A stretch of DNA of 20,408 nt from a virus (taxonomy: Duplodnaviria; Heunggongvirae; Uroviricota; Caudoviricetes): IMG/VR virus record IMGVR_UViG_2737471845_000026, positions 1 to 20,408 of that record. One strand, written 5' to 3'. Below, piece after piece: positions 7,341 through 16,033 of this stretch (within the stretch, counting starts at the first letter, position 1; each line of letters begins with the position of its first letter). Under the pieces are notes generated by a model. That model made no database searches and was not told where the DNA came from. It worked only from the letters and a program-made list of their open reading frames with translations. A program made the translations under genes and the position numbers.

Positions 7341-7496
7341 TTACTCCTCAGATTCGTAAGCTGTGAAGACAGTGACCTCCGTCTGGCCGGTTCGGATTCG
7401 TACCTCGCAGAGGTCTTTCCTCATTACCAGTGCCGTCACTATGACGGTTAAACAGATGACGATCAGGGCGATTAACATCGCCTTTTGCTGCTTCAT
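7341..7496 (-). CDS. hok: Hok/Gef-family type I toxin (51 aa), closely HokD/RelF-like
   Basis: Translation MKQQKAMLIALIVICLTVIVTALVMRKDLCEVRIRTGQTEVTVFTAYESEE is a Hok-family hallmark. SD AAGGAG 9 nt upstream. The listed 70-aa ORF is an in-frame upstream extension. Confidence 0.9.
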   Translation of the reverse strand: MKQQKAMLIALIVICLTVIVTALVMRKDLCEVRIRTGQTEVTVFTAYESEE

Positions 7497-7834
7497 AGCC
7501 AGCTTCTCCTTGCCTTTCGGCACGTAAGAGGCTAACCTACATGTGTAAAGCATGAAATTGGCCTCAGATTAATGTTAAGCGTCTTGCCGGACGCGTAATG
7601 TTAACTGGGGCTTTTCTCTGTCTGCCTTACAGTGGCATGCCCGAGGCAGACAGCCTCAAGCACCCGCAACAATCTTACCGACACCGATAAGAAAACGCTA
7701 TTTTTTATTGCCAGAACCTTCTGCCCAGGCTAATGTATCCGCGTCAGAACGGCGCAATGCGCTCGCCTGAGATACGTTTACTTGTCATTGGTGGCAACAG
7801 ATAACGGCAATTGTTATTTCTGTTTGTTTCCTTC

Positions 7835-9365: not shown

Positions 9366-9515
9366 CTAGGTATGACCTGTTTTATCAACGACGCCATTTC
9401 TTTTGAGTTCCCACAGCTCGTTCAGCACTTCTTCACGACTGATATCAAGTCGCGCGGCCAGTTCCACCGACGTGGCTTTTCCCATTACTTTCAGTGCGTC
9501 AAAAACAGTCTCCAT
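9366..9515 (-). CDS. Small winged-helix protein, 49 aa; possibly the N-terminal part of an amber-interrupted gene
   Basis: ATG at 9515 with SD GGGAGGAAATTTTA-ATG; translation [49 protein letters not shown]; ends at TAG 9366-9368. Confidence 0.5.
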
Positions 9516-9537
9516 TAAAATTTCCTCCCGGTAAAAA

Positions 9538-10284
9538 TTACTTCTCAATTCCTGGCTGGATGACATTCGTGCGCCAGCTCTCCCAGTTAAAATTCACCCA
9601 GCGACCACCGTTCATGGTCATGCGGTCCATCACGCGCTCGCCAAGCAGCGTATTCATCGCCGTATGGTTCAGGTTCGTCAGCATCCCGACGCTGTGCATC
9701 GAGGCCGTTCTGCGATCGACTATCTGGTTCAGTGTGACCTGTTCGTTACGCGTATCCCGCTGCATACCAATTTCATCCAGGACAAGCAGGTCAACCTCAC
9801 ACAACCCCTGCAAAAATTTTTCGCCCGAGTTTTTGTTGTCGTAGTTGCCGTGTAACGCCAGCATCACATCCGCCACCGTCACCACAATCACGCTGCGACC
9901 TTTCGCCAGAAGATGGTTGCCGATGGCTGCCGCCAGGTGATTTTTTCCGGTACCCGGCTTACCGCTGAACACAAAATTTGTGCACCCGGTCATCAGCTCG
10001 TCCGCGATGGACTTCGCCTGGCTGAGTGCATGACGCTGTCCGTCGTTCTGCACCAGGTAATTCGCAAACGAACATTTCTGGTGCAACGGCTGGATACCGG
10101 AACGATTCAGAATTTTTTCCACCCGGATCTGGCGATTCTGGCGGTTAATCTCCTCGCTACGCTTTCGCCCTTCTGCAAGCTGCCACTCTCTCCACTCGTC
10201 CACTGTCCGGTACGGCGCGGTTACATGCTGCGGGGCCAGCTTACGGATGCGTTCAAGAACACCACCTGCCGCAATATTTTTCAT
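9538..10284 (-). CDS. DnaC-like replicative helicase loader (IstB/DnaC AAA+ family; Rac YdaV-like), 248 aa
   Basis: Walker [18 protein letters not shown], Walker B LLVLDEIG, and strong resemblance to E. coli DnaC along its length ([41 protein letters not shown]). Confidence 0.9.
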
Positions 10285-10290
10285 AACCCG

Positions 10291-11400
10291 TTACCCCCTG
10301 AATCCCGGCGGAATTTCGGTGTCCGGTTCAGAAATGTGATTCACACAACGCTGGTTGTTCGTGCCGCTTACCGGAATCAACCAGGGGTTTTCAAAATTCC
10401 GGTCCGGTCCAAAAAACGTCGTCGCTCGCTGAACAAATTCCGTTCCCGTTTTCCCGGTAGCCGCCAGGTATCTTGCATAACGCCTCACACCATCCATCAT
10501 GGCCTCTGGTGGCACCCCCTCGCGTAATCTGGCCTTCCAGGCACTGAATGCGGATTTCTTCGGGTTTGCCCCGGCACGCAACGGGTATTCCCGCCAGACC
10601 TGTTCGAACACATCCGGATAATCCACCCGTCCCACAGGCTGCCCGGTGTTTTCCGGGACTACCCGATCGGCTTCCCGCTGAATGGCGGAATCGGCTTCAG
10701 GCTGCTGCAGTTGGTGTGATTGTTCCGGCCTTGCGGTCATCGCCTGCTGCACAGCGCCCGAATCGGCTTTCAGCGCATACGCTGAATCGGCTTCCGGTGT
10801 CGTGCCTGCTGGCTGACCAGAATTTACGGTCTGAACATCCCCTGCCTGGTTCATGGTGTTTTTTTCGCCATGAACCATAGTGTTTTTGTCCTGTTCCTGT
10901 TCTTTCTCCTGCTCCTGTTCTTGGCTTCGAAGCCCCTTAAAAGCCCCTTCGAAGCCCCTTACAGAATTTCGGCTATTATTCCGCCTCACATCCAGATGGA
11001 AATCCGTTTTATATCTGTCGTAAAACGCTGACAGAAAAGCGTTTTCAGGTAATGATGCATACTCATTCCTGACACCTGCACAACGGTTATCGCCAGGCTT
11101 CAACGTTTCCCCAACCTGCCAGGCTGCCATTTCATGGACCCAGACCATCTCTGCATCATGGTCATAGCTACAAAAACCAGCTTCAACAGCCCTTTTAAGC
11201 CCCTTTGAAGCCCCTTCCAGACCAAGCCCGGTTTCATGAGCAAGGTATAAAACTGGCAGGTAATACAAACCCAGCATATTTGCGTGAGGGGATGTCATCA
11301 GGTAAAAAGCAACAACTTGCGCTTCTGCACCCGCCTTTCTAAGTTCTCTCCCCGTTTCTCCCAGCCAGAATCGCGGAGAAACTTTTGCGTAATCACGCAT
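10291..11400 (-). CDS. Replication initiator (O-like/YdaU-like), 369 aa from the ATG at 11400
   Basis: Immediately upstream of the DnaC-like gene (6-nt gap). SD GAGG 6 nt before ATG 11400; the listed ORF extends to ATG 11511 but that start has no SD. Contains a QEQEQEKEQEQ linker and iteron-like repeats. Confidence 0.7.
   Translation of the reverse strand: MRDYAKVSPRFWLGETGRELRKAGAEAQVVAFYLMTSPHANMLGLYYLPVLYLAHETGLGLEGASKGLKRAVEAGFCSYDHDAEMVWVHEMAAWQVGETLKPGDNRCAGVRNEYASLPENAFLSAFYDRYKTDFHLDVRRNNSRNSVRGFEGAFKGLRSQEQEQEKEQEQDKNTMVHGEKNTMNQAGDVQTVNSGQPAGTTPEADSAYALKADSGAVQQAMTARPEQSHQLQQPEADSAIQREADRVVPENTGQPVGRVDYPDVFEQVWREYPLRAGANPKKSAFSAWKARLREGVPPEAMMDGVRRYARYLAATGKTGTEFVQRATTFFGPDRNFENPWLIPVSGTNNQRCVNHISEPDTEIPPGFRG
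10930..10960. repeat. Iteron-like direct repeats (three copies of AAGCCCCTT at 11-bp spacing) inside the O-like gene
   Basis: Plus strand ...GAAGCCCCTTAAAAGCCCCTTCGAAGCCCCTT...; encodes the peptide repeat GFEGAFKGL. Confidence 0.4.
11188..11216. repeat. Second cluster of the same iteron-like motif (two full copies plus one degenerate)
   Basis: Plus strand CAGCCCTTTTAAGCCCCTTTGAAGCCCCTT, about 240 bp from the first cluster and still within the O-like gene. Confidence 0.35.
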
Positions 11401-11478
11401 GGCTACCTCATCTGGTGCCGAACCTTCCTCCGGATATAATCTGTGGTTCCCAATCGACAGAACCAGAGGAGGTTCGAC

Positions 11479-11934
11479 ATGTATTTTTTGAAAAGCCTTT
11501 ATCAGGCTCATGTATTAAATGTTGCAGCAACAAACCGCTGGTGTAATAGCCCCGAAATGCTCCCGGATTACAGAGCCTGGCTGCGCGCAGAAACATACCT
11601 TCGTCTCGACATATTGATTAGCAAACTTCAAAAAGAGACTGCATCCATTCATAACCTTCAGGGTATCGACGCTGTTCGCATTCTGGTATCGCGCCATAGT
11701 GCTCTCTCAATAATTGAAGTGCGTCATCTCTCTTTTTCTGAACTGATTTTCTTGCTTCAACCAGCTCTGGAATCAGCGAATATCCCACCGGAAGTGATCC
11801 AATACCCACCTCATGTTGACGAGCAGTTACAAGATGTGCCATACAACCAGCGTGCTGGATTGACTCCCTGCTCAGAGGCTGAATGGGATCACTCTCTGCT
11901 GAAGAAATACCAAGATTTGTATAATCCTCAATAA
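11479..11934 (+). CDS. Hypothetical protein, 151 aa, divergent from the replication operon; antisense to the 169-aa minus ORF
   Basis: ATG at 11479 preceded by a near-perfect SD AGAGGAGG with 6-nt spacing; reasonable codon usage. Overlaps 11618-12127 on the other strand, so only one of the two is likely real. Confidence 0.4.
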   Translation: MYFLKSLYQAHVLNVAATNRWCNSPEMLPDYRAWLRAETYLRLDILISKLQKETASIHNLQGIDAVRILVSRHSALSIIEVRHLSFSELIFLLQPALESANIPPEVIQYPPHVDEQLQDVPYNQRAGLTPCSEAEWDHSLLKKYQDLYNPQ

Positions 11935-12127
11935 GCCCGGCACACGCTTCTGCATCAGCCAGCTTTATTCTGGTTTCCTTGCGCTGTTCTCTGGCTGACA
12001 AACGCCAGAGCAGCGCATTAACTTTATGTATCAACCACTCTGCCAGCTCCACATCAGATAAACCGCCACGCCAGATGTGCGGACTGTTTTCGTAAACGCT
12101 CAGTGTCAATTTTTTGTCATTACTCAT
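11618..12127 (-). CDS. Hypothetical protein, 169 aa, between the YdaT-like and O-like genes; antisense to the 151-aa plus ORF
   Basis: ATG at 12127 lies 14 nt after the YdaT-like stop and is co-oriented with the operon, but the SD is weak and several AGA codons are present. Ambiguous against 11479-11934. Confidence 0.4.
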   Translation of the reverse strand: MSNDKKLTLSVYENSPHIWRGGLSDVELAEWLIHKVNALLWRLSAREQRKETRIKLADAEACAGLIEDYTNLGISSAESDPIQPLSRESIQHAGCMAHLVTARQHEVGIGSLPVGYSLIPELVEARKSVQKKRDDALQLLREHYGAIPECEQRRYPEGYEWMQSLFEVC

Positions 12128-12140
12128 ATTTATTACCCAA

Positions 12141-12566
12141 TTAATGCACAGCCAGAGTGTTTCCTGCCGGGCCACCACGATTCATCTGATCGAACAGAAC
12201 TATCGCTGATGCAACTAAATCATCGATATCTTTCACCAGCCGTTCCTGCGTCTCCACCAGCTCCCGAAAATAAGCGGAACTGTGGCTGCGCATTCGGGCC
12301 ACCAGCGGAGGCGGCATCGCTTTTTCGATAGCTGGTAACAACGCCTGAATTTTTTTAACCGCGTCAGGGGTATCTTTCTCCAGCCAGCGGAAAATTTTCT
12401 GGGTATTACGGCCCAGGGCTTCCGGATGGCTGTCGTCGAACAGTTCAGGAAACGTCAGACCCAACTCGAAATAAGCCCGGGTTATTTCAGCTGCCGGAAC
12501 TTTTTCACCGTCCGGATATGCCCAGGCATTCATCGCCATGCGGATGTGTTCATGCTTGATTTTCAT
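12141..12566 (-). CDS. YdaT-like protein (141 aa), putative CII-like regulator of the Rac-type immunity region
   Basis: N-terminus MKIKHEHI and size and position (after the cro-like gene, before replication genes) match Rac prophage YdaT as I recall it. Overlaps the upstream gene by 17 nt. Confidence 0.65.
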   Translation of the reverse strand: MKIKHEHIRMAMNAWAYPDGEKVPAAEITRAYFELGLTFPELFDDSHPEALGRNTQKIFRWLEKDTPDAVKKIQALLPAIEKAMPPPLVARMRSHSSAYFRELVETQERLVKDIDDLVASAIVLFDQMNRGGPAGNTLAVH

Positions 12567-12834
12567 GAATCAACCCTATTTTTTTGGATCTGATAATTTC
12601 TTCTGGAATCCCACTAACTGGAGTAGGGTGCAAATCAGGCCGGAGATCATGCGGAGTAACAATCCATTCCCCAAGCTCACAAAGCCTAATAACCCTCTCA
12701 CTAGGAACCCTGTTCCTGATAATCCAATTAAAAATGGATTGAGGCGATTTGAAACCAAACATGCGACTTACAGCAGAGGGAGAACCAATAGCCATAACCG
12801 CCTTTTCTGTAATGTTTTTGTATGTAGTGCTCAT
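12550..12834 (-). CDS. Cro/YdaS-like HTH regulator (94 aa from ATG 12834)
   Basis: First gene downstream of the operator-containing promoter, divergent from the repressor. SD GGAG 6 nt before ATG 12834; alternative ATG at 12846. Confidence 0.65.
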   Translation of the reverse strand: MSTTYKNITEKAVMAIGSPSAVSRMFGFKSPQSIFNWIIRNRVPSERVIRLCELGEWIVTPHDLRPDLHPTPVSGIPEEIIRSKKIGLIHENQA

Positions 12835-12861
12835 CGTTAACTCCATTTCAAGAACGGAAGA

Positions 12862-12889
12862 ATGATACTACATAAAGTAGAATTTGCAA
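12862..12889 (-). promoter_or_regulatory. PR-like promoter with an operator palindrome in the spacer
   Basis: Minus-strand -35 TTGCAA (plus 12884-12889), 16-nt spacer, -10 TATCAT (plus 12862-12867). The spacer contains the palindrome CTAC-N5-GTAG (12868-12880). Confidence 0.5.
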
Positions 12890-12934
12890 CTACGCAAAAT
12901 AGAAATGACGAATCAAGGTAACTGCTTTAATCTT

Positions 12935-12947
12935 CTACATATGGTAG
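12935..12947. promoter_or_regulatory. Second operator-like palindrome CTACATATGGTAG, overlapping the repressor ATG
   Basis: Same CTAC-N5-GTAG half-sites and same GAA flank as the site at 12868-12880; centred 67 bp away. Confidence 0.4.
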
Positions 12948-13393
12948 AAAACGCACATAAACATCGCGCATTCGCAACAAGACTTAAGTCAGAAATGGAT
13001 AGAAAAAACAAATCCATCAAAGACTTAAGCTTATCCACGGGCGTCACATACGAAATGGCGCGGCGCTACACCCTAGGCACAGCTAAACCACGCGACGAAA
13101 AACTCGAACGAATAGCAGAATTTCTGGGAGTTGAACCTGCATGGCTGGAATACGGTCAGCTAACAGAGAAAGGAATTGAACCAGCAGAAGATTCATTTGT
13201 AACACAAAGATCTGGTTCCAATAGCAATGGTGAATTTACTGAGTTAAGTGAAGATGAAAAGCGACTGATACGAACGTTTCGGGAGTTTCCACCAGTTGAA
13301 GCCAAGAATATGCTCCTGGCTTTTGAGATGAGGCTCAAGAAACTTTACGATTTCTACGAGAAATACGCCAGCACCCCACCACCTTCTGAGTGA
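12941..13393 (+). CDS. Prophage repressor, XRE/HTH family (RacR/cI-like), 150 aa from ATG 12941
   Basis: HTH KSIKDLSLSTGVTYEMARRYTLG; divergent from the cro-like gene with operator palindromes in between. Start is ambiguous (ATG 12941 without SD, ATG 12905, or TTG 12884). Confidence 0.75.
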   Translation: MVENAHKHRAFATRLKSEMDRKNKSIKDLSLSTGVTYEMARRYTLGTAKPRDEKLERIAEFLGVEPAWLEYGQLTEKGIEPAEDSFVTQRSGSNSNGEFTELSEDEKRLIRTFREFPPVEAKNMLLAFEMRLKKLYDFYEKYASTPPPSE

Positions 13394-13409
13394 CTTTGTC
13401 TGTTAACAA

Positions 13410-13437
13410 CACCCCGGTATTGCCGGGGTTATTTTTG
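13410..13437 (+). terminator. Rho-independent terminator after the repressor gene
   Basis: Hairpin CCCCGG-TATTG-CCGGGG (13412-13428) followed by TTATTTTT. Confidence 0.55.
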
Positions 13438-13489
13438 CCTTAAAAAACAACTTTATATAGACAAAATACAACACACTCTACTTTTGGTG

Positions 13490-13517
13490 TTGACATATCT
13501 ACTTCAAGTAGTATCAT
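13490..13517 (+). promoter_or_regulatory. PL-like promoter with an operator palindrome in the spacer
   Basis: -35 TTGACA (13490-13495), 16-nt spacer containing CTACTTCAAGTAG (13499-13511), -10 TATCAT (13512-17). Same architecture as the PR-like promoter at 12862-12889. Confidence 0.55.
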
Positions 13518-14603: not shown

Positions 14604-15290
14604 TTTATCCTCCATTGAAGTTACTGGTTGAGAATGGAGACCACACGTGACAGCGTGTTGTCGTGCGCCGGACACGGATAAGAATCCGGCACTGACAGTT
14701 TACTGAAAGAATATATCCCTGAAAAGTCAGGGCATAACTCGAAAGCGCACGGCGGAGGTGTCTTTTCCTTAGAAGGCTTGTCGTTAGATTTCTTCGACCG
14801 TGCGCTTCCGGTTGTGGCACTCCGCGAAATGGCGCGGCGGTAAGTATGGCGGGGTTATCCTTACCCCATTAGTGGCACCGGGTTGTCAGGTTGACCATAC
14901 GCTTAAGTGACATCCCCGCTGCAACAACCCATGTTGATTACCTTTTGGCGGGTATCCGTTTTTTGTTTTCCCTTGTGATACCAGCCCTTTTTAAAGTGAA
15001 TTTTGTGATGCGGTGAATGCGGCTAAGCGCACGCGGAACAGTTAAAAAGGACAGTTGACATTCGTATTGGTTCTTATGGGTGGGTTATCTGTATCCGGCG
15101 TTAATTGTTAACTGGTTAACGTCACCTGGAGGCACCAGGCATCGCATCAACAAAATTCACTTCAGTGATGAAAGGTGAGAGAAAATGTTGAATGTAGCTA
15201 TTGAAAACCAGAACGGGTGGAATTATAGTGCACCTGCACCTCATAAAACGGGTGCCGGGATTTGCACCCCGATGATCACTAGAGCGCATA

Positions 15291-15312
15291 ACCGCGCCAA
15301 AGCGGTTTTTTT
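15291..15312 (+). terminator. Intrinsic-terminator-like hairpin plus U-tract inside the leader upstream of rha (possible attenuator)
   Basis: ACCGC-GCCAAA-GCGGT followed by TTTTTTT; embedded in a larger inverted repeat GCGCATAA...TTATGCG. Confidence 0.45.
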
Positions 15313-15478
15313 ATGCGTAAAGCGCAGCCACATTCAGATTATGGTGGGGCGTATGGGGCCGTTTTCGGGCGGGCCGGATTCTCTAGTGACCGGTAGTGCA
15401 AACCCTGTACGTCTCACCACCCATGAGATTTGCACCTACGGTGGTGAGTTTACCAACTTATCACTAGAGGCTGCCATC

Positions 15479-16033
15479 ATGGCTACTATCCCTACCCTGT
15501 CTCACCCTGACGTAACCATCGAAAACGGTCGCGCTATCACTACGTCTGTTGCGATCGCAGAGTTCTTTGGCAAACGACACGACAACGTGTTACGTGCCAT
15601 CGCAAACATTGAATGCTCAGAAAAATTTAACGCCCTCAATTTTGAGGACGTAACGTACACCGACGCCAAAGGCGAAAAACGTCCAATGTACCAAATCACC
15701 AAAAACGGCTTCGTTTTCCTGGTGATGGGCTTCACTGGCAAAAAAGCCGCTGCATTCAAAGAGGCCTACATTGCTGAGTTCGACCGCATGGAGGCAGAGC
15801 TGCGTCAGAATAACACCCCACCAACTGACAAAATAATTCCTGGCGATGGTCGCACTCTGGTTGTTCGCTTCGACGAACACGGCAATATCAAATTCACCGA
15901 AACCGTTCCTGATGGTGCAATGGTCTGTACTCTGGATACCTTCCAGTTTTATCTGGAGAAACAGGGATGGACACTTGTAAACCGGAGCGCAATTAGAAAC
16001 ATGACTGTCGAACAATTGCTGCGTATTAAATAG
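15479..16033 (+). CDS. rha: Phage regulatory protein Rha (Rha domain), 184 aa from ATG 15479
   Basis: Rha-domain signature VTIENGRAITTSVAIAEFFGKRHDNVLRAIANIE...ITKNGFVFLVMGFTGKKAAAFKEAYIAEFDRME; SD AGAGG 8 nt before ATG 15479. The in-frame upstream extension to 15185 is judged non-coding. Confidence 0.75.
   Translation: MATIPTLSHPDVTIENGRAITTSVAIAEFFGKRHDNVLRAIANIECSEKFNALNFEDVTYTDAKGEKRPMYQITKNGFVFLVMGFTGKKAAAFKEAYIAEFDRMEAELRQNNTPPTDKIIPGDGRTLVVRFDEHGNIKFTETVPDGAMVCTLDTFQFYLEKQGWTLVNRSAIRNMTVEQLLRIK

Follow-up and report, generated by a model that had tools for sequence, protein, structure and literature searches.

Phased 9-base repeats inside a prophage initiator gene: probable iterons of a proposed intragenic replication origin

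The replication initiator gene of a prophage contains, within its own coding sequence, two arrays of the 9-base repeat AAGGGGCTT. These arrays probably are iterons bound by the N-terminal domain of the encoded protein and, together with a short junction and a hexamer tract that follow the distal array, probably constitute the replication origin of the prophage. The analyzed window is the whole stretch of viral DNA, 20,408 bp in length, and the features on which the argument turns are the following.

10291-11400, minus strand: replication initiator gene, 369 aa (open reading frame and translation; PHROG; fold model)
9538-10284, minus strand: gene for a DnaC-like AAA+ helicase loader, the presumed partner, directly downstream of the initiator gene
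11197-11216, minus strand: proximal array (cluster A), two exact AAGGGGCTT copies 11 bp apart; gene nt 185-204, codons E62-L68
11180-11194, minus strand: weak continuation of cluster A in 11-bp phase, with AAAGGGCTG at 11186-11194 and an AAGC unit at 11180-11183
10930-10960, minus strand: distal array (cluster B), three exact AAGGGGCTT copies with an 11-bp period, in three frames; gene nt 441-471
10924-10929, minus strand: junction between cluster B and the hexamer tract, reading cgAAGC on the coding strand; an incomplete further unit that keeps the 11-bp phase
10888-10923, minus strand: (CARGAR)n hexamer tract CAAGAACAGGAGCAGGAGAAAGAACAGGAACAGGAC, encoding QEQEQEKEQEQD
10847-10877: inverted repeat TGGTTCATGGTG-TTTTTTT-CGCCATGAACCA (plus strand reading), about 10 nt beyond the hexamer tract

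The repeats are non-random. The 9-mer, which reads AAGCCCCTT on the plus strand and AAGGGGCTT on the minus, coding strand, is present in five exact copies within 287 bp (starts at 10930, 10941, 10952, 11197, and 11208), all on the same strand and 11 bp apart from start to start within each cluster, and there are no further exact copies elsewhere in the window. The expectation from base composition is 0.149 copies for the whole window, the Poisson probability of at least five copies in any 300-bp stretch is about 1e-14, and other 9-mers with five occurrences in the window are scattered, without clustering. The two clusters are offset by 256 bp in register and separated by a gap of 236 bp, and both lie inside the 369-codon reading frame, so that the layout described in an earlier note on this DNA (two clusters with 11-bp spacing, some 240 bp apart, within the initiator coding region) is borne out. 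Weaker units extend both clusters in the same 11-bp phase, namely, CAGCCCTTT at 11186, AAGC at 11180-11183, and GCTT at 10924-10927. A second repeat, GAATCGGCTTC, which occurs four times between 10666 and 10797, was considered as a source of extra iterons and rejected: its spacings of 24, 72, and 24 bp are multiples of 3, the copies encode PEADSA-type peptide repeats, and they go with the C-terminal module (being present in phage Tritos), so they were kept out of the proposed origin.

An initiator-type protein with an adjoining loader gene is evident, and the protein is the replication initiator in the position of lambda O. It consists of a winged-helix N-terminal domain (aa 1-145), a disordered linker, and a C-terminal domain with a DnaT-like tail. 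The gene was initially termed O-like, which holds for position and function and does not hold for family, there being no match to Pfam Phage_rep_O, the lambda O family. Pfam yielded no family for the initiator at E <= 0.01, nor any for the N-domains of 77 family members at E <= 1; Phage_rep_org_N, in particular, showed no sequence match to the initiator or to any of the 77, and no AAA+ domain was found in the initiator. Among the PHROGs, 1701 (‘DnaD-like helicase loader’) matches the initiator with E 1e-144 and 6251 (‘replisome organizer DnaA-like’) matches weakly, with E 3.6e-4. The AF2 model of the N-domain (pLDDT 91.8) has a winged-helix topology, and a Foldseek search of BFVD with this domain retrieved ‘Replisome organizer’ proteins (TM 0.72-0.73, E 5e-5 to 8e-5, rmsd 2.5-2.8 A) as well as a ‘Phage replisome organiser N-terminal domain-containing protein’. 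Fold searches of the PDB with the full-length and N-domain models yielded nothing significant (best E 0.07), and the matches, which include the RepA_N initiator and its DNA complex (4pt7, 5kbj; E ~0.2, TM 0.38, not significant), share the generic winged helix only. Some relatives are annotated as DnaT (primosomal protein I), an assignment that we rejected because only the last 24 residues match: aa 346-369 align with DnaT 156-179 at 17.9 bits vs a cut-off of 201, and this tail is also the sole, weak match in a PDB sequence search (E 0.018-0.065). The DnaC-like gene scores 491.7 bits against NCBIfam NF009043 (cut-off 389) and 315 bits, under the cut-off of 357, against the DnaC equivalog NF005931, and contains IstB_IS21 (E 1.2e-17) and Bac_DnaA ATPase domains. 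Upstream of the initiator gene are cro/YdaS-YdaT genes.

The N-domain defines a large family (4,114 clusters at 50% identity, E <= 0.001) that is found in prophages of Escherichia, Shigella (including Eru4-type Stx1 phages), Klebsiella, Acinetobacter baumannii, Proteus, Burkholderiales, and Xanthomonadales, and whose deposited annotations are ‘hypothetical’, ‘DNA-binding protein’, ‘replication protein O’, and ‘primosomal protein I’. Full-text literature searches found no binding or replication assay for any family member; queries with the 9-mer, and queries about iterons or origins of the family, brought up nothing beyond unrelated primers, work on lambda-type O, and Eru typing papers that do not describe an origin. 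For comparative analysis, about 70 diverged relatives from gamma- and beta-proteobacteria were used, and codons were analyzed in 68 representatives with pairwise nucleotide identity <85%, a sample that is not phylogenetically independent even though its members are >15% apart in DNA.

Codon comparison indicates that cluster A is selected as DNA, because synonymous positions are frozen within the 9-mers and the spacer codon varies. The entropy of the third position is 0.00 for E62 (GAA, 59/59) and K66 (AAG, 58/58), 0.12 for G63 (GGG, 63/64), 0.49 for G67 (GGG), and 0.58 for L68 (CTT). In other conserved columns, E and K range over 0.73-1.0, and G and L over 0.92-1.92, with G60, beside the motif, as the only one of these G and L columns below 1.17. 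The codon of S65, located between the two 9-mers, is free (1.64), and the GAA codon of E73, in the weak continuation of the array, is likewise frozen among the representatives. The cluster A codons fall within helix 60-73 of the modeled winged helix, which the model suggests to be the recognition helix of the N-domain.

Could the repeats lack any function as DNA and simply reflect a recurring peptide (EGAxKGL) or chance? Both EGASKGL and EGAFKGL are encoded in the window, and the proximal peptide is itself highly conserved as protein. This explanation is extremely improbable: an 11-bp period is impossible as a peptide period, the synonymous freezing occurs only inside the 9-mers, and the chance expectation is 0.15 copies per window. 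Moreover, the distal array appears in other frames and in the opposite orientation, within a disordered segment and encoding unrelated peptides; frozen synonymous sites, combined with independence of frame and orientation, contradict the peptide-repeat and chance reading.

With the 11-bp period, successive copies in the distal array fall in three different reading frames, so that in the window they read RGF, EGA, and KGL, within aa 146-158, a low-confidence (disordered) segment of the model. In the relatives, the place of cluster B is constant, just before the linker, with 2-3 copies, and the spacing is 11 bp in 70 of the 83 neighboring pairs. The copies occur in all three frames and in either orientation, the majority of the representatives having them in reverse (RR in 29 and RRR in 14; FF or FFF in 6; mixed in others). 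Both orientations occur even among phages of E. coli and Shigella, with a forward array in the window and an inverted one in 75/02 Stx and PhiR5_2. The encoded peptides across the family include RGFEGAFKGL, EGASKGL, EAPSEPL, APSKPL, and KAPSKAPSKP. Judging from this comparison, cluster B is conserved as DNA, not as peptide. The statement in the earlier note that both clusters encode the same peptide repeat is accordingly correct for the window, where EGA[S/F]KGL is found in both, and fails in the relatives, whose distal peptides are unrelated; the further suggestion that coding and DNA-site constraints coincide has to be dropped, given that the 11-bp period leads through three frames and the peptide is not what is conserved. 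The motif is concentrated at 10.7 per kb in gene nt 150-540, compared with 0.32 per kb over the remainder of the 5-kb loci. Taken together, the alignments demonstrate DNA-level selection on the repeats.

The repeats also co-vary with the N-domain of the initiator, and sequence comparison of the family shows both arrays changing in concert. In Klebsiella phage ST13-OXA48phi12.4 and its relatives, the N-domain of which is 31% identical, both arrays consist of AAAGGGTTT or its variant ending in C (AAAGGGTTY) at the same two places, and the helix peptide is ERVSKGF instead of EGASKGL. Two further loci, L121 and L158, carry AAGGSCCTT-form variants in both arrays. Conversely, Tritos and six other phages share a 95% identical C-terminal half (10291-10886) and have an unrelated N-domain, and in Tritos, the one of these seven that was examined, the 9-mer is absent; the repeats thus appear to travel with the N-domain. 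The frozen synonymous sites, the independence of frame and orientation, and the concerted change of both arrays together make iteron function a well-supported reading of the sequence data.

An alternative that these observations address is that the sites are bound by another factor, such as a host nucleoid protein, another phage protein, or one with a packaging or partition function. The pairing of N-domain and 9-mer is a matter of sequence correlation, and the motif is nearly invariant from Escherichia to Burkholderiales hosts, as would be expected of a site for a conserved host factor. Nevertheless, such a factor appears improbable: the motif is confined to the coding sequence of the initiator family, it is gone where the N-domain has been swapped, as in Tritos, and it changes along with the N-domain in the ST13-OXA48phi12.4 clade, which infects Klebsiella, a genus that also hosts phages with the standard motif.

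The junction between the N-domain and the C-terminal module falls exactly at cluster B and the hexamer tract, and family members have many different C-terminal domains behind the same tract. Together with the segment shared with Tritos-type phages, this would fit an explanation in which cluster B and the tract are module-boundary sequences, kept or spread by homologous recombination among mosaic phages, with no role in replication. We consider this highly improbable, because it leaves unexplained why synonymous sites are frozen in cluster A, deep in the N-domain, why the two arrays share one motif, and why that motif was replaced in concert by AAAGGGTTY; besides, an inverted array and a forward one would not favor homologous exchange with each other.

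The hexamer tract starts 6 nt past the last 9-mer, and the junction cgAAGC is present in nearly all of the 68 representatives when these are aligned at the start of the tract. The tract, which was originally described as a QEQEQEKEQEQ linker between the clusters, is in fact outside the pair, encoded at 10888-10923 directly 3' (in the coding sense) of the distal cluster. In the relatives, it invariably follows the distal array, with n = 3-16 and a GAGAGA reading in a few. Its codon choice shows no excess of A-ending Q/E codons, such as selection for easy melting would produce, over those elsewhere (0.42 vs 0.47 overall; 0.38 vs 0.36 in high-GC3 loci, Wilcoxon p 0.69) and, with this choice being neutral, the tract may be only a slippage-prone linker; it may serve as a linker only, or also as an unwinding or loading zone. 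Hairpins are enriched after the tract in the relatives, and the inverted repeat at 10847-10877, the sole notable item in a promoter and terminator scan in which counts were no higher than in shuffled sequence, is a possible accessory structure of the origin.

Of the features commonly sought at origins, an AT-rich unwinding element was not found adjoining the arrays in a nearest-neighbor stability scan: the flanks are ordinary, the least stable 30-mers near the arrays rank no better than the top 3-13% within the window, and the stability of the hexamer tract, -1.39 kcal/mol per bp, is average against a window mean of -1.40. No DnaA box (TTWTNCACA) is present within 9400-13500. The earlier proposal of iteron-like repeats as a candidate phage origin thus gains strong comparative support in its first part, iteron-like sites tied to their own initiator, and has neither an AT-rich tract nor a DnaA box nearby to lean on in its second.

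The arrays might be operators for the initiator, or for a repressor-like protein, that act in autoregulation only, as a roadblock or loop throttling transcription through the initiator gene, the origin being elsewhere in the prophage. What conservation at the DNA level and co-variation with the N-domain establish is a binding site, as distinct from an origin; the arrays lack an adjoining AT-rich unwinding element; and Acinetobacter phages have additional copies of the 9-mer ahead of the start codon, at -37 and -26, where operators are typically found. Iterons, however, commonly have a dual use in origin function and autoregulation, as in plasmid Rep systems, which counts against a purely regulatory role. 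The window contains no other clustered repeat of the 9-mer motif, and the linker, the hexamer tract, and the hairpin zone always adjoin the arrays, much as an unwinding tract follows the iterons of lambda. In addition, the origin is inside the initiator gene in the lambdoid phages that have been studied experimentally (PMC7466680). On balance, autoregulation without origin function seems unlikely.

By the precedent of lambda and SPP1, origin activity can be ascribed to the arrays by analogy, and we infer physical binding, looping, the place of unwinding, and delivery of the helicase in the following scheme. Upon derepression, the rightward-type operon, which in window coordinates would be transcribed leftward, would express the cro-like YdaS, YdaT, an ECs1072-family gene, the initiator, and the DnaC-like gene. 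Initiator monomers would occupy successive 9-mers, which, one helical turn apart, would lie on one face of the DNA, and the two arrays, about 250 bp apart, would be drawn together into a single nucleoprotein complex. The duplex would then open beside the distal array, within the zone of the hexamer tract and the hairpin (10847-10923), and the host DnaB helicase would be delivered by the C-terminal domain of the initiator, with its DnaT-like tail, and the DnaC-like protein.

If the arrays indeed are the origin, they provide a defined cis element for the replication module of many medically relevant prophages. Such an element would be easily tested, consisting of a 9-bp site and a 145-aa domain with two natural specificity classes (AAGGGGCTT and AAAGGGTTT). 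It would also be a clean natural case of a single DNA stretch under both coding and protein-binding selection, in which the presumed reading helix is encoded by the very codons that contain its binding site, and an illustration of how an origin can function when no AT-rich unwinding tract is obvious.

In lambda and Stx phages, the origin consists of O-binding iterons in the middle of gene O, with 4-6 contiguous iterons of 18-19 bp, each an imperfect inverted repeat (PMC7466680, PMC3349717). The present arrangement resembles ori-lambda (O, ITN1-4, the AT-rich tract, and the partner P) in that the sites are in the initiator's own gene, at and before the inter-domain linker segment, the N-terminal domain is paired with its own sites whereas the C-terminal half is exchangeable, and the gene belongs to an early operon, after cro/cII-type genes and before the gene for a helicase-loading partner. 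Among the differences, the initiator falls outside Phage_rep_O, and where lambda has a single block of 4-6 inverted repeats of 18-19 bp, the prophage has 9-bp sites repeating every 11 bp, with 2-3 copies in each of two arrays that lie about 240 bp apart. One of these arrays is inside the codons of the DNA-binding domain and the distal one can be inverted, a 38-40-bp AT-rich tract is absent, and the place of lambda P is taken by a DnaC-like AAA+ partner. The notion that the repeats mirror the ori-inside-O arrangement of lambda therefore survives with respect to the sites in the initiator gene and the distal array abutting the linker codons, and not with respect to the O family, the 18-19-bp iterons, or the AT-rich tract.

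Replisome organizers of the SPP1 G38P type, which are found in Gram-positive phages (Pfam Phage_rep_org_N), have oriL within gene 38. The present system is similar in the predicted fold of the N-domain and in the proposed placement of the origin in the initiator gene, and is distinct in the lack of Pfam-level membership, the Proteobacteria hosts, and the sequence and layout of the repeats. Iterons of plasmids are about 17-22 bp long and intergenic. Like these plasmids (RepA_N of pSK41; the RepA, RepE, and pi class), the prophage has helically phased direct repeats and a winged-helix initiator encoded adjacently; unlike theirs, its sites are shorter (9 bp) and embedded in coding sequence, and the fold matches are not significant. 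Among Stx phages, Shigella phage 75/02 Stx, the type phage of Eru4, encodes a homolog of the initiator with 80% identity in the N-domain, along with a DnaC-like protein (PMC8951638), whereas the immunity region of the window differs and the distal array of 75/02 Stx is inverted. Eru types are assigned from the two genes adjacent to cI, with no origin or iterons described (PMC8951638).

The spacing geometry offers one more lead. In E. coli oriC, 9-mer sites 2 bp apart form two arrays of opposite orientation and, in many origins, DnaA-trios, a run of trinucleotides with an obligatory central A, adjoin the nearest box (PMC6727663). Here, too, 9-mers are 2 bp apart in two arrays that are opposed in most family members, and the (CAR GAR)n run has a central A in every trinucleotide. 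The sites do not qualify as DnaA boxes, an AAA+ domain is missing from the initiator, and the codon choice of the tract gives no sign of selection on DNA, so the resemblance is one of geometry and not of membership. A more speculative variant of the scheme, which we regard as doubtful, is an ‘oriC-like’ origin without DnaA, wholly inside a coding gene, where the 2-bp-separated 9-mers of two usually opposed arrays would nucleate an initiator oligomer and the (CAR GAR)n run, followed by the hairpin, would be a trio-like element for single-strand binding or unwinding. In such an origin, the run would amount to 6-32 trinucleotides, each with a central A, that double as QE (or GA) linker codons. 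One segment would then have three uses, with the codons of the recognition helix forming the binding site of that same helix and the linker codons forming the melting zone.

The window is an Escherichia-type lambdoid prophage, with an integrase gene at its right end. Leftward from the plus-strand cI-like repressor gene (12884-13393), the minus strand encodes, in this order, a YdaS/cro-like protein, YdaT, an ECs1072-family protein, the initiator and a DnaC-like AAA+ protein (9538-10284; NF009043 at 491.7 bits, above the cut-off of 389), with DUF1627, hok/sok, RusA and Q further to the left. The likely start of the initiator ORF is the ATG at 11400, which gives a 369-aa product (gene 10291-11400). 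By this gene order, the initiator corresponds in position to lambda O, and the DnaC-like gene to lambda P. The ECs1072-family gene between YdaT and the initiator (11618-12178; PHROG 8304) has no assigned function and no Pfam or NCBIfam match; in 75/02-type phages, a small hypothetical gene after cII takes its place.

As the earlier note had it, the initiator coding region contains two clusters of an exact 9-mer, AAGCCCCTT, at 11-bp spacing. All five copies lie on the same strand of the window:

10930, 10941 and 10952, plus strand: three exact copies (cluster B, the distal array; coding-strand array at gene nt 441-471)
11197 and 11208, plus strand: two exact copies (cluster A, the proximal array; coding-strand array at gene nt 185-204)

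There is no further exact copy in the 20,408 bases, where 0.149 would be expected from base composition over the whole window and both strands, and the Poisson chance of at least five copies in some 300-bp stretch is about 1e-14. The remaining 9-mers with five occurrences are dispersed over the window, where they belong to terminator stems and to the contexts of start codons. Read on the coding strand, the unit is AAGGGGCTT; weaker in-phase units extend both arrays, each of which terminates in cgAAGC. As 11 is not divisible by 3, the copies in cluster B are read in three frames (A-AGG-GGC-TT, RGF; GAA-GGG-GCT-T, EGA; AAG-GGG-CTT, KGL), so that this is a DNA repeat rather than a peptide repeat, and the proposal that both clusters encode the same peptide repeat, with coding and DNA-site constraints coinciding, is wrong in that form. 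The QEQEQEKEQEQ linker, previously placed between the clusters, is encoded at 10888-10923, just past cluster B.

We compared 80 viral loci, 80 genome loci (covering Enterobacterales, Acinetobacter, Xanthomonadales and many Burkholderiales) and several annotated phages, which were reduced by removal of near-duplicates to 68 representatives more than 15% apart in DNA. The peptide encoded by cluster A, E-G-A-S-K-G-L, is conserved among the representatives, and its codons are distributed as follows.

Codon choice across cluster A (residue, codon count, third-position entropy)
E62: GAA in 59 of 59, 0.00
G63: GGG in 63 of 64, 0.12
A64: GCT in 52 of 66, 0.90
S65, covering the 2-bp spacer: codon varies, 1.64
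K66: AAG in 58 of 58, 0.00
G67: GGG in 58 of 65, 0.49
L68: CTT in 61 of 67, 0.58

Synonymous positions are constrained inside the 9-mers of cluster A, and the spacer codon S65 is free. Elsewhere, third-position entropy is 0.73-1.0 in conserved E/K columns and 0.92-1.92 in conserved G/A/L columns, with G60, two codons ahead of the first 9-mer, the sole other G/A/L column below 1.17. The constraint persists in high-GC3 hosts, where GGC, GCC and CTG would be expected.

Cluster B is present in all representatives, with 1-4 copies (mostly 2-3) directly upstream of the linker and neighbours spaced by 11 bp in 70 of 83 pairs and by 12 bp in 9. The encoded peptides include VRGFEGAFKGL in the window, SEGASKGL in the Klebsiella type, IEAPSEPL in Shigella phage 75/02 Stx and PhiR5_2, EAPSKPL in most beta-proteobacteria and KAPSKAPSKP in the 12-bp clade. 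In this minority clade (genome loci L121, L134/L136, L148 and L160), where the distal 9-mers are 12 rather than 11 bp apart, the DNA repeat is kept while the peptide changes. The array is oriented RR in 29 cases (R, reverse; F, forward), RRR in 14, FF or FFF in 6 and mixed in 10, with single copies in 9. The general form of the unit is AAG-SSS-CTT, with palindromic arms and a spacer that is most often CG; inversion of the whole array therefore alters the central triplets alone, and one inversion event could flip all of cluster B. Allowing at most one mismatch, 9-mer density is 10.7 per kb in gene nt 150-540, compared to 0.32 per kb over the other ~5 kb of these loci.

The two arrays change in concert. 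The initiator of Klebsiella phage ST13-OXA48phi12.4, with an N-terminal domain 31% identical, the same gene order and an adjoining DnaC-like gene, has AAAGGGTTT-cg-AAAGGGTTT at the proximal site (gene nt 176-194) and AAAGGGTTC-cg-AAAGGGTTC at the distal site (nt 408-426), the latter followed by a (CAGGAN)n tract. This variant is kept at both places in 15 diverged relatives of the clade, where the helix peptide is ERVSKGF, as opposed to EGASKGL; individual loci have minor AAGGSCCTT variants in both arrays. Tritos and six other phages, including Evi and vB_EcoS-689R5, have the C-terminal half of the initiator gene (window 10291-10886) in common with the window, at ~95% DNA identity; in Tritos, the one of these seven that was examined, the N-terminal domain is unrelated and the 9-mer is absent. 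The recombination joint of the Tritos-type phages coincides with the end of the QEQ tract, the hexamer run encoding the linker (module junction 10886-10923). Cluster B and the tract could owe part of their conservation to a role as a recombination boundary, which leaves cluster A and the concerted change unexplained. Taken together, cluster A, cluster B, the density, the concerted change and the module swap show that the 9-mers are selected as DNA. Judging from these sequence comparisons, which show the two arrays varying as one, both would be read by a single specificity determinant that travels with the N-terminal winged-helix domain.

No Pfam family matched the initiator, for which the top labels are PHROG 1701 ('DnaD-like helicase loader') and PHROG 3729 ('replication initiation protein'). 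AlphaFold2 modelling on a 77-sequence alignment yielded high confidence for residues 10-140 (N-terminal domain pLDDT 91.8, pTM 0.86), with helix 25-36, strand 45-47, helices 50-57 and 60-73, and hairpin 77-80/85-88 in succession. The predicted topology is that of a winged helix, with helix 60-73 apparently in the recognition-helix position; pLDDT is below 50 for residues 146-158, encoded by cluster B, and for most of the linker. A Foldseek search of solved structures gave no significant match for the initiator models, the best hits being generic winged-helix proteins, including the plasmid initiator RepA_N. Among predicted viral structures, the N-terminal domain matched 'Replisome organizer' proteins (TM 0.72-0.73, rmsd 2.5-2.8 A, E 5e-5 to 8e-5) and, more weakly, 'Phage replisome organiser N-terminal domain', 'Replication initiator protein', DnaD and DUF1376 proteins. 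The domain is very common (in a phmmer search, 4,114 clusters at the 50% identity level reach E <= 0.001, of which 912 reach E <= 1e-30). The C-terminal tail, ...VNHISEPDTEIPPGFRG (aa 346-369; window 10294-10365), resembles the C-terminal 24 residues of E. coli DnaT (NF002770 positions 156-179, far under the family cut-off; also PDB 6aep, 2ru8 and 9zbt), which accounts for the annotation of some relatives as 'primosomal protein I' and suggests mimicry of the DnaT tail by the phage initiator as a means of engaging the host primosome or a helicase-loading partner.

The reading with the most support takes the 9-mers to be iterons of the initiator's winged-helix domain that mark the prophage origin inside the initiator gene. 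It draws on the non-randomness of the repeats, DNA-level selection, coupling to the N-terminal domain, the initiator-type fold and the adjoining loader gene, all demonstrated here. The initiator would bind the 9-mers, the arrays, ~250 bp apart, would be brought together by looping, melting would occur at a place near them, and DnaB would be delivered via the C-terminal domain and the DnaC-like protein. Lambda provides a direct precedent: there, replication requires iterons that bind O as well as an AT-rich tract, both located midway along gene O (PMC7466680, PMC3349717). The main rival is that the 9-mers serve autoregulation only. It fits the Acinetobacter members, which carry extra 9-mers at -37, -26 (and -15) from the initiator start codon (Acinetobacter phage YMC/09/02/B1251, L167, 37 and 26 nt upstream; also L094, L098, L108, L109, L115, L118 and L142), a third array whose promoter/RBS-like location suggests autoregulation or else an extension of the origin; upstream of this codon, the window lacks 9-mers. 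Dual use, as origin and in autoregulation, is plausible.

Almost all representatives have nnAAGC after the final unit of cluster B and then, without a gap, a (CARGAR)n run of 18-96 nt, for which QEQEQE is the usual reading. A few lineages whose spacing is 12 bp (L121, L134, L148, L160; proteins P0038, P0046, P0078 and others) use a different frame, which gives GAGAGA or GTGAGA, a shift that hints at a DNA-level role. The frequency of third-position A in its Q/E codons, 0.42 compared to 0.47 elsewhere in the genes (paired Wilcoxon p 0.69), gave no sign of DNA-level selection, and the tract melts no more easily than average, so we treat its role as an unwinding element as a hypothesis. The array region contains no DnaA box, and the arrays have no clearly AT-rich block beside them. 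Within 50 nt past the tract, there is an excess of short GC-rich hairpins, with a perfect stem of at least 6 bp in 27% of representatives versus 6% of control windows in the same genes; mean DNA folding energy there is -8.1 versus -5.8 kcal/mol (Mann-Whitney p ~1e-7, with composition and relatedness partly controlled). Two further repeats follow in the window:

10847-10877, as read on the plus strand: inverted repeat with a 12-bp stem (TGGTTCATGGTG / CGCCATGAACCA) and a 7-nt T loop, ~10 nt past the QEQ tract
10666-10797: four copies of GAATCGGCTTC starting at 10666, 10690, 10762 and 10786, at spacings of 24, 72 and 24 bp

The inverted repeat, the window's counterpart of the hairpins enriched past the tract, is kept in PhiR5_2, 75/02 Stx and Tritos, with one compensatory pair, and on the plus strand looks like an intrinsic terminator antisense to the initiator gene. 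The GAATCGGCTTC copies, which differ from the inverted iteron by two bases only, encode PEADSA-like repeats in the disordered middle of the initiator and go with the C-terminal module (Tritos has them); given their spacing in multiples of 3, they are probably a peptide repeat.

The layout and logic are those of ori-lambda. Unlike in lambda, the initiator does not belong to Phage_rep_O, the sites measure 9 bp rather than 18-19 bp and form two separated arrays instead of a single block, the AT-rich tract is absent, and the partner is DnaC-like rather than P; by membership tests, the array system falls outside the lambda family. On the predicted structure, the N-terminal domain groups with phage replisome organizers, without a sequence-level family. 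To oriC, with its low-affinity DnaA-box arrays and DnaA-trios (PMC6727663), there is a resemblance only, in the 9-mers 2 bp apart, the two arrays that are mostly opposite and the adjoining run of trinucleotides with a central A. Eru4 Stx phages (75/02 Stx) encode a homologous initiator, the Eru4 type itself being defined by other genes. We found no published description of these repeats or of an origin for this initiator family. An origin embedded in the initiator gene is a textbook principle; the initiator family and the site architecture are new, as is the location of one array within the codons for the presumed recognition helix. This large and uncharacterised family has medical relevance, and the comparative signal is of unusual clarity and open to direct testing.

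Three RNAs were identified elsewhere in the prophage:

15236-15312: isrK RNA (Rfam, 68.6 bits)
15337-15424: C4 antisense RNA (Rfam, 78.1 bits)
7494-7665: sok antitoxin RNA (Rfam RF01794, 115 bits)

The first two sit within the 5' part of an Ash/Rha-family ORF (15185-16033), and this region makes up a P1/P7 c4-type antisense immunity module, here carried by a lambdoid prophage. The sok RNA indicates a hok/sok-type toxin-antitoxin locus in the early-right region of the prophage.
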